Shown here in pieces: positions 27,926-28,910 of a stretch of DNA of 61,197 nucleotides; position 1 is the first letter of the stretch; every line of letters begins with the position of its first letter. Below the pieces are notes generated by a model that saw only the letters and a list, made by a program, of their open reading frames with translations, had not been told where the DNA came from and made no database searches. Both the position numbers and the translations under genes were made by a program. This DNA comes from an uncultured Clostridia bacterium (lineage in GTDB: Bacteria; Bacillota; Clostridia; Christensenellales; UBA1242): positions 1 to 61,197 of the forward strand of contig CALVIT010000002.1 of NCBI GenBank assembly GCA_944331845.1, read 5' to 3'.

Positions 27926-28910
27926 CTCTTGAACTGTGAGAGTATCATAGTAGTTTCTCTTACTTCATAGAGAAGTCCCGCCTGGTCTTTAAGTGGGTAG
28001 TCTCGTCCAGACTTTAAGATGGATAGTTGTCCTAAACTTGTTAGGATAGTCAGTCTAGACTATAACTAGATAGTTGACTTATGACTTAGCATAAGTAGTC
28101 AAGCATAGACTTTAAAATAACGCAGTTAACCTAAGGCTTCAAACAAGGTGTCGTGCTATAGACTAATTTAGTATTCAAGCATAAGAATTTAAAAATTGCG
28201 AGTTTTTCTAGACTTAATTAGAACGCCATACTTGCGTTAATGTATATTCAGTAAAGAAGTTAAAATCTCTATGATAAGTGGATTACTTATTACTTTCTCA
28301 AAGTATAAATGAGTGCTTGCTAAAGCATAAAATTAGTTTTCAAGCCAAGAAAAGAAAATGGTACTCCAGCCGAGAGTATAAAATGGTACTCATACATAGA
28401 GTCTAAATGTGTGTTCTAACTTAAGAACTAAAATTAAGTGTTCGTACCGTAGAAATTAAAAAGCGGTGTTCATTCTTAAGAACTAAAAAATAGAGTTCAA
28501 CCTTAAGAACTATAAATAAGGGTTCAATCCTAAGAACTATAAAAGGGTATTCTAAATGCTGAATCAAAATGCATTACTCATTAGAAGAGTCAAAAATCTA
28601 AATCTCAAGCAAAGAGACAAAAATTGCACTCATACATAAGAGTAAATTTGTACTCAAGTGGGAGAGTATAAAATCCATACTCAGGCATAGAGTATAAATG
28701 TGTGTTCTAACTTAGGAAGTTAAATTAAGTATTCTCACCATAAGAATCTAAATTTGGTATCTCGCAAATAGATTGTATTTGTGTTCAAGTCTAAGAACGG
28801 AAAATAGATATTCATACTAAAGAAGTAAAAAATAGTCTTCATACTAAGAAGTAAAATTAGTGTTCAAGACCGAGAAGTTAAAATGGGTTACACAAGACTA
28901 TGTGTATAAC
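27926..28910 (+). repeat. Array of ~40 tandem degenerate ~26-nt units, each a short hairpin (4-6 bp stem, 5-8 nt loop) plus an A-rich spacer
   Basis: Hairpins were located by hand with mostly 25-27 nt spacing. Examples are TACTC/GAGTA 28362-28378, GTTCT/AGAAC 28413-28428, AGTTC/GAACT 28494-28511, ATACTC/GAGTAT 28677-28695 and ATTCT/AGAAT 28731-28747. The spacer consensus is yAAAAT. There is no ORF of 60 aa or more on either strand. Confidence 0.85.

Follow-up and report, generated by a model that had tools for sequence, protein, structure and literature searches.

The stretch of DNA analyzed here ("the window," W), positions 1–61,197 of contig CALVIT010000002.1 of an uncultured Clostridia bacterium, carries fusA followed by tuf, the gene for elongation factor Tu (EF-Tu), and then a gene-free region that is the subject of this report. 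That region consists, on the + strand, of a tandem array of small structural units (27926–28910), a structured 3′ domain (28940–29208), and an intrinsic terminator (29209–29236). An earlier note on this DNA had described each unit as a plain hairpin with a spacer; we find instead that the unit is an H-type pseudoknot, the spacer past the A-run being the second strand of a helix formed with the hairpin loop. It seems very likely that the region specifies a functional RNA whose structure is a tandem series of pseudoknots.

For comparison we fetched further loci, designated by L-numbers. Those bearing the RNA are L083–L092, L097–L099, and L001/L002, the last two from strains 98% identical to W at the locus; L093–L096 (EF-Tu 78%–79% identical) and L003 and L007 (74%), all without the RNA, served as outgroups.

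Results

A Noncoding Tandem Array Downstream of tuf

As the earlier note had it, no open reading frame (ORF) of 60 aa or more occurs on either strand of 27805–28910, the longest being 42, 48, and 35 aa. With 30–53 stops per frame in all six frames, and with frame-breaking indels between orthologues, a coding region is ruled out, and the proposal that the region is noncoding holds. An assembly artefact is excluded as well, the locus being present in two independent metagenome assemblies at 98% identity and, in diverged form, in 12 further loci. A CRISPR array was also rejected: a 26-nt period leaves no room for a spacer, and the variable parts are self-complementary. No cas-like domain was found in six ORFs of the window scanned with Pfam or among precomputed Pfam labels around the tuf genes of the relatives.

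All 13 stem pairs quoted in the earlier note were found in place, and hairpins prove more frequent here than in shuffled sequence: 27926–28910 holds 33 non-overlapping hairpins with at least four Watson-Crick pairs, compared with 17.2 ± 2.9 (maximum 25) in 300 dinucleotide shuffles of the same segment, and 20 with at least five pairs, compared with 5.8 ± 2.0. Canonical units lie 24–28 nt apart, in agreement with the proposed regular spacing of ~26 nt; Tandem Repeats Finder does see a period of 25–27, but it picks up fragments only, which is what degenerate units would lead one to expect. The original count of ~40 units was too high. We now place it at ~30–35, of which 23–26 are canonical, and a motif-agnostic scan finds 29 complete units, each with the two helices (S1 and S2) described below, in 27893–28945. 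The pattern TC-N7/8-GA is five-fold enriched in the array.

The array has two parts. Its 5′ part (27926–28334, + strand) is a heterogeneous mixture of hairpins and pseudoknots in which S1 is varied (often AGUC/GACU) and the spacing less regular; matches to a covariance model of the unit fall there at 27996, 28094, 28170, and 28243. The canonical array (28335–28910, + strand), recognized by S1/S2 geometry, covariation, and the unit model, comprises ~22 abutting mini H-type pseudoknots.

The First Helix, S1

S1 has the consensus NYUC/GARN and closes a loop of 7–8 nt. When units were anchored solely on TC-N7/8-GA, so that pairing of the outer positions was not required, pair 3 was Watson-Crick in 88% of them (TA, CG, GC) and pair 4 in 69% (AT, GC, TA), against 26%–34% for the same pairs in the rest of the window; the arms of the stem do covary, as had been claimed. 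The conserved part of the stem is just 4 bp, however, and not the 4–6 bp first described, position 5 being mostly a U·U mismatch (T-T is the commonest combination). Between orthologous units of W and L086, whose EF-Tu proteins are 91% identical, pairs 3 and 4 show five compensatory double changes, and the inner pairs, UC/GA, differ at 0 of 80 sites. Half-sites that covary in this way support the earlier contention that selection acts on base pairing, in a single-stranded nucleic acid, and not on a fixed DNA half-site.

The Second Helix, S2

In S2, 4–6 nt of the loop pair with the stretch that follows the A-rich linker (UAAAA-like). After S1, the strongest signal in a mutual-information scan of units drawn from seven loci was a run of three consecutive antiparallel Watson-Crick-type couplings between the loop and nucleotides ~10 nt past the stem. 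When the best helix of each loop with its own downstream tail was scored against 1,000 permutations of the tails among units, the mean in W was 4.5, compared with 3.19 ± 0.17 for permuted tails (z = 7.5; 0 of 1,000 reach it); the same test in L086, L083, L087, and L089 gave z = 6.8, 5.7, 4.9, and 4.7, respectively, each beyond all 1,000 permutations. Pairing of the loop with the upstream flank, used as a control, scored at the permutation mean with no excess. A T-arm or K-loop unit, or a pseudoknot of the 5′ flank with its own loop, had been considered and was dropped, since the mutual information and the flank control put the pairing of the loop downstream.

For 120 units with 8-nt loops, aligned without gaps, S1 and S2 together have a covariation score of 0.406, against 0.164 ± 0.012 in 500 column shuffles, none of which reaches it, and 0.09–0.19 with slid partners. 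Comparison of W with L086 finds 60 S2 pairs unchanged, 17 compensatory doubles, and seven pairs changed on one side with pairing kept. Both helices are thus kept by compensatory change.

The geometry of the unit (L1, 0–2 nt; S2, 4–6 bp; L2, 0–2 nt; L3, 5–7 nt and A-rich) agrees with the classical rules for H-type pseudoknots, and the gap between the 3′ strand of S2 in one unit and the 5′ strand of S1 in the next has a mode of 0. S2 strands differ at 28%–33% between orthologues, and L1 and L3 at ~21%–22%; at the junction, UC/GA and the A's of L2 do not vary. With UC/GA fixed and S2 drifting, it is the fold and the junction that are under selection, rather than the sequences of the helices.

Such a unit calls to mind the preQ1-I riboswitch, a very small H-type pseudoknot in which P2 forms between the hairpin loop and a 3′ tail past an A-rich stretch. 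The units here are likewise very small and carry an A-rich stretch before the strand corresponding to P2, and an H-type fold with an A-rich L3 is the architecture of the smallest natural aptamers. The region might accordingly be read as an array of mini ligand-binding aptamers, preQ1-I-like, that serve as buffer or sensor for an ion or small molecule, and junction nucleotides that stay invariant while the helices covary would suit that reading. We consider it very improbable. The conserved sequence differs from that of preQ1-I; the units lie 3′ of tuf and ahead of a terminator instead of in a 5′ untranslated region (UTR), are present in ~30 copies, and have no expression platform or regulated gene; and L1 and L3 vary to the extent just given. 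Neither the PreQ1 model nor that of any other riboswitch family gives a match at E up to 10 in W 27700–29400 or L087 7200–9480, and we know of no precedent for a sensor in 30 copies.

The + Strand Is the Structured Strand

The + strand reading of the earlier note is borne out, because the invariant G·U pairs of the 3′ domain, the terminator, the geometry of a short L1 and a long, A-rich L3, and the matches to the unit model all point to that strand. When the unit covariance model was searched with filters off against the 61-kb window, every match with E < 0.5 lay at 27996–28860 on the + strand; among nine loci searched with it, 87 of 89 matches were downstream of tuf, on the + strand, in members of the clade described below, and the outgroups gave 0. 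The T-G wobble first advanced as a strand argument is weak within the array, where G·U and A·C counts are small. For S2, allowing G·U raises z slightly more than allowing A·C, a preference for the + strand that is slight and nondecisive.

Inverted repeats are symmetric, so both strands fold alike by minimum free energy (MFE), and the length of the array shifts by segmental duplication between lineages. Both observations would be expected of a repeat that acts at the level of DNA (protein-binding iterons, single-stranded-DNA hairpins, or a selfish satellite) or that has no function, yet we judge such a repeat to be highly improbable. The half-sites covary instead of being fixed, and a directional second helix, of the loop with downstream sequence, has no DNA-binding rationale. 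The flanks are strand-asymmetric, the model matches lie on the + strand only, and a covarying 3′ domain with G·U pairs and a terminator is attached. The segment is, moreover, the least diverged between strains (see below), and the 61-kb window holds no dispersed copies. Dispersed palindromes of the repetitive extragenic palindrome or bacterial interspersed mosaic element (REP/BIME) type were rejected on the same grounds: no unit-model match with E < 0.5 occurs outside 27996–28860 in the 61 kb, and the array is therefore not a dispersed repeat. In the relatives, the 13-kb loci searched likewise have no match elsewhere.

Flanks, 3′ Domain, and Transcription

The limits originally given to the element, 27926–28910, cut off the conserved, covarying 3′ domain and the terminator of a unit that extends over 1.2–2.3 kb. 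The 3′ domain, ~300 nt long (28940–29208 in W, + strand), has ~12 helices with invariant G·U pairs and includes the invariant stretches AGUGAUGUAUUGCUUAGUACAUUA and AUAAGCAUUGAUAGGCAAU..AACCUAGACCAUAC. In alignments A1 and A3, examined with RNAalifold and by pair counts, 95.4% of cells are paired; 25 pairs have changed on both sides, compared with 10.9 ± 2.4 in shuffled alignments (0 of 500 reach 25) and 2–7 in slid controls. Several of its G·U pairs are invariant and would be A·C on the opposite strand. The terminator (29209–29236, + strand) has 11 pairs and T8, and its stem holds an ACCC-AUCA-GGGU hairpin ahead of the T run. All lineages conserve this hairpin, to which the relatives add a second, GC-rich terminator hairpin.

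At the other end, tuf is preceded by a strong sigma-70-type promoter, TTGACA-17-TATACT (26335–26363, + strand), which matches the consensus at 11 of 12 positions and is conserved in five aligned relatives, and by a conserved leader of ~230 nt. On inspection of the sequence, nothing from the tuf stop up to 29209 makes a convincing terminator, and it is possible that this promoter feeds read-through transcription into the array. A conserved motif, GACTTAACCCTGCAAAGTTTTC (27818–27839, + strand), begins 13 nt past the tuf stop; its core, TTAACCCTGCAAAG, occupies the same position in W, L001/L002, L083–L088, L091/L092, and L099 and is absent in L089/L098. Within the motif, ACCCUG (27824–27829) is complementary to CAGGGU (29222–29227), the 3′ arm of the terminal hairpin, and also resembles its 5′ arm, ACCCAU; the two ends might thereby form a closing helix at long range, or the motif might compete with the stem of the terminator.

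Just before the array lie a candidate internal promoter, TTGATA-18-TATACT (27842–27871, + strand; 10 of 12 consensus positions), and a 5′ stem-loop, GTCGC-TTT-GCGAC (27886–27898, + strand). The promoter is uncertain, because its −10 element is not conserved in L086. The stem-loop has a counterpart there, GTTGC-GAAA-GCAAC, that differs by compensatory change, and the succession of a promoter-like site and a covarying 5′ hairpin hints that transcription begins near 27879. L083-type loci show a TAGAAT box and then a GC-rich hairpin unlike that of W. The RNA may thus be free-standing, a read-through 3′UTR of tuf, or both; its predicted length is ~1.36–1.43 kb in W and 1.2–2.3 kb in the relatives.

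Several of these features would be equally at home in a cis-acting, giant 3′UTR that is made solely as part of the tuf mRNA, protects it from 3′-to-5′ decay or tunes the level of EF-Tu, and does nothing in trans. The tuf promoter is strong and conserved, no convincing terminator intervenes before 29209, the conserved motif starts only 13 nt past the stop codon, tuf is in every case the gene immediately before the element, and L086 does not conserve the internal promoter. This is the main rival to the interpretation that we favor, an RNA acting in trans, and we hold it to be unlikely. A structure of 1.2–2.3 kb, costly and finely kept, exceeds what blocking an exonuclease requires, for which one terminator hairpin is usually enough; the promoter-like site and conserved 5′ hairpin of W, like the TAGAAT box and GC-rich hairpin of L083-type loci, suggest a separate start; and the invariant single-stranded blocks of the 3′ domain suggest specific recognition.

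Distribution and Conservation

Searches with EF-Tu delimit a tight clade, 86%–91% identical, the next step down being 79%; the nearest species-representative genomes by EF-Tu are metagenome-assembled genomes of Clostridia at 71%–74% identity. Besides W, 14 fetched loci carry the whole unit downstream of tuf, namely L001/L002 and 12 relatives. The relatives form five sequence-distinct groups (L086; L083–L085/L091–L092; L087–L088; L089–L090/L098; L097/L099), so that, with W's own group, the locus exists in six or more versions of distinct sequence. In each, a gene-free stretch of 1.2–2.3 kb follows tuf, and the same parts recur in it: the motif past the stop codon (except in L089/L098), the array, the ~300-nt 3′ domain, and the terminal hairpin with its terminator. 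The number of canonical units per array ranges from 13 to 35. The array gains and loses units between lineages, and the 3′ domain is always attached. The outgroups L093–L096 and L003/L007 have ordinary short spacers with no unit-model match. In the longer arrays of the relatives we saw a second module among the pseudoknots, with a stem of ~7 bp and a conserved loop of ~18 nt, UUUGCYAGAAAURCUAAG (L083 7640–7690; L087 7800–7850, 8580–8620, and 8780–8820); it was not seen in W.

Between W and the two 98% strains, the RNA region shows 0.14 differences per 100 nt, the lowest of the segments compared, tuf showing 0.42–0.50, the neighboring genes ~2, and the AT-rich spacer past the terminator 5.1. 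The RNA region is under purifying selection. That spacer (29241–30135), the most diverged segment of the comparison, is 895 nt long, gene-free, and 15%–20% G+C, with tandem repeats of period 28, 22, and 11.

The earlier note had assigned the element to no described RNA class, and our searches agree. Rfam gives only chance-level matches to the region in W, whether the gathering score is applied or E is allowed up to 10, and the same holds for four relatives at the gathering score and for L087 at E up to 10; the sole Rfam match in the window is a tRNA at 58450–58522. ARAGORN, run on 27700–29400, detects nothing resembling a tRNA or tmRNA. In a scan of JGI metagenomes, a relaxed pattern of the 3′-domain core recovered one further locus, L097, from the same clade. 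A phage origin was considered and rejected, the 3′-domain core pattern having 0 matches in IMG/VR. Two patterns of two units each did match there, at 48 loci; these we take to be chance, because there is one match per locus and no clusters of units were picked up by the unit model. Searches of the full-text literature turned up no bacterial RNA in which pseudoknots form a long tandem array.

One architectural parallel is offered by the antitoxins of type III toxin–antitoxin systems (ToxI, CptI, TenpI, antiQ), in which tandem repeats folding as H-type pseudoknots are followed by a Rho-independent terminator and then, in the same operon, by the gene for a ToxN/CptN/TenpN endoribonuclease (PMC5086642). 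The present element resembles them in its tandem short units, H-type pseudoknots (here computational), A-rich linkers, and terminator. It could therefore be an orphan RNA of this kind, cut to monomers by a ToxN/CptN/TenpN-like endoribonuclease that is encoded elsewhere or by a phage, and serving to neutralize or decoy that enzyme; the A-rich segments between units resemble antitoxin processing sites. The differences nonetheless make this quite improbable. No toxin gene lies downstream or nearby: the 895 nt past the terminator hold no ORF of 60 aa or more, the next gene beyond them is a convergent class-Ib tRNA synthetase, downstream genes vary by lineage, and neither of the two nearest unannotated ORFs scanned with Pfam (31445–31882 and 28959–29198) shows a ToxN-like match. 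Known type III antitoxin units are in the mid-30s to mid-40s of nucleotides and few in number, whereas here they are ~26 nt long and number 13–35, far above antitoxin arrays. The units are degenerate, with structure and junction conserved and S2 strands ~30% different between orthologues; a conserved 300-nt domain intervenes between array and terminator; and the element occupies a fixed, vertically inherited position beside a housekeeping gene throughout the clade.

Other Features of the Loci

The fusA–tuf spacer (26213–26602) holds the fusA terminator hairpin, the tuf promoter, and the tuf leader. Within the leader, the blocks GGGATAGCATCC, TCGCGAGTTT ... GTTCGCGAC, and TAGCGCTATC are invariant across five lineages. 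The spacer has no Rfam match, and the leader may have a structure through which tuf is regulated. In L083 the spacer contains an extra ~470 nt (5111–5600) of higher G+C with an internal duplication (GGTGGCGGGGAWAGCCCCG...CTGTGGTT...), an insertion absent from W, L086, L087, and L089.

Elsewhere in the window, 1828–5043 encodes a 1,071-aa protein of BspA-type leucine-rich repeats (Pfam LRR_5, E = 1e-111), and 6528–20873 is an ORF of 4,781 aa with weak Ig-like, GLUG, and CdiA-C-like matches. A homologue of ~4,700 aa lies upstream of rpsL in every clade locus that reaches that far, and the product of the 4,781-aa ORF is probably a surface protein. In L089 (8599–11068) and L098 (6599–9068), genes for a radical-SAM protein and a TRM13-like methyltransferase come after the RNA on the same strand; in that place the other lineages carry a convergent gene for a tRNA synthetase or a phosphatase. 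The pair in L089 and L098 are the only neighbors of an RNA-modification type that we saw, and their presence is probably coincidental.

Discussion

Bacterial noncoding RNAs longer than 1 kb are very rare, and we came upon no description of one that strings a single small tertiary motif into a long chain. We suggest that the element described here is a candidate new class of large bacterial noncoding RNA, confined to one clade of low-GC gut bacteria that are uncultured. As an overall explanation we lean toward a lineage-specific, long, structured + strand RNA that acts in trans as a multivalent platform. That it works specifically as a scaffold or a sponge is a more tentative proposal.

According to this explanation, the RNA would be cotranscribed with tuf or begun just downstream of it and would end at the terminator at 29209–29236. 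Some 30 mini H-type pseudoknots would then follow one another head to tail, the 3′ strand of each S2 running without a gap into the next S1, and because these two helices share a continuous strand with no spacer, successive units could stack coaxially. Such a stack would form a quasi-continuous rod of ~9–10 bp per unit, or ~80–90 nm for ~30 units, and would display a UC/GA junction and an A-rich strand in the groove once per unit, about once per helical turn. A protein that reads the geometry of the junction might find in this RNA, acting in trans, a multivalent platform, scaffold, or sponge, and the 3′ domain could confer stability, localization, or a second partner.

Several observations weigh against this interpretation. 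In L086, 21 of 106 S2 pairs look broken, partly through misalignment or turnover of units. Shuffle-based statistics overstate independence, because the units are related by duplication and orthology, and isolated units would be marginally stable, because their stems are short and AU-rich. MFE folding favors neither strand (z of −2.3 and −2.7). Transcription of the + strand across the array is read from sequence, its start position is ambiguous, and the −10 element of the internal promoter is, as noted, not conserved in L086. A recent recombination tract could contribute to the low divergence between strains, because that low divergence also spans tuf and its leader. Finally, synteny beyond tuf is not conserved, and no candidate binding protein was found.

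The idea of a platform for protein has analogies of different kinds. CsrB and RsmZ, like the RNA described here, are assembled from numerous imperfect copies of a small structured motif whose stems vary, and they end in an intrinsic terminator. Their loops, however, carry GGA. The earlier note had remarked that the loops of the array lack this triplet, and the count is in accord: six GGA in 985 nt, against 11.6 expected, with one in 23 canonical loops. CsrB and RsmZ are, in addition, a few hundred nucleotides long, the present RNA being several times longer; its units are pseudoknots, and it has no Rfam match at E up to 10. With OLE, GOLLD, ROOL, raiA, and HEARO it shares a length above 500 nt, extensive conserved structure, a narrow phylogenetic range, and an obscure role. 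To our knowledge, none of these five consists of a single small motif repeated in tandem over a long array, and the Rfam models for them, as well as those for 6S, tmRNA, and RNase P, found no match in the window or in the relatives scanned.

A further parallel comes from plant viruses. The upstream pseudoknot domain (UPD) in the 3′UTR of tobacco mosaic virus (TMV), a tobamovirus, has three pseudoknots and binds eEF1A-GTP (PMC4683447). The two elements are alike in that abutting H-type pseudoknots in a 3′ noncoding region precede a separate structured 3′ domain. They differ in that the UPD has three units, not ~30, and belongs to the RNA genome of a virus of eukaryotes; there is no sequence similarity, and the tRNA-like structure of TMV has no equivalent here that ARAGORN detects in 27700–29400. 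The three pseudoknots of the UPD are drawn as coaxially stacked, although PMC4683447 does not itself document the stacking; the 3′ domain of TMV is tRNA-like, and eEF1A is the eukaryotic homologue of EF-Tu. By analogy, the RNA could be a self-supporting rod that serves as a structural element or as a periodic docking rail, with EF-Tu as one candidate partner and array length setting a dimension or a binding capacity. We raise this as a speculative and rather doubtful variant; in it, the ~9–10 bp per unit would correspond to nearly one turn of A-form helix, and array length would be tuned by the gain and loss of units between lineages.

Should this RNA be confirmed, uncultured bacteria of the human and animal gut would possess a new architectural class of large bacterial RNA, a natural, modular, and expandable RNA nanostructure in which pseudoknot "beads" are strung together, their helices drifting and their junctions fixed. 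It would also provide a tractable system for learning how multivalent RNAs organize bacterial proteins, with unit number, from 13 to 35, as a natural variable. Because the element lies behind tuf and has a parallel in the eEF1A-binding pseudoknots of plant viruses, a connection with the translation machinery of these bacteria can be put directly to the test.

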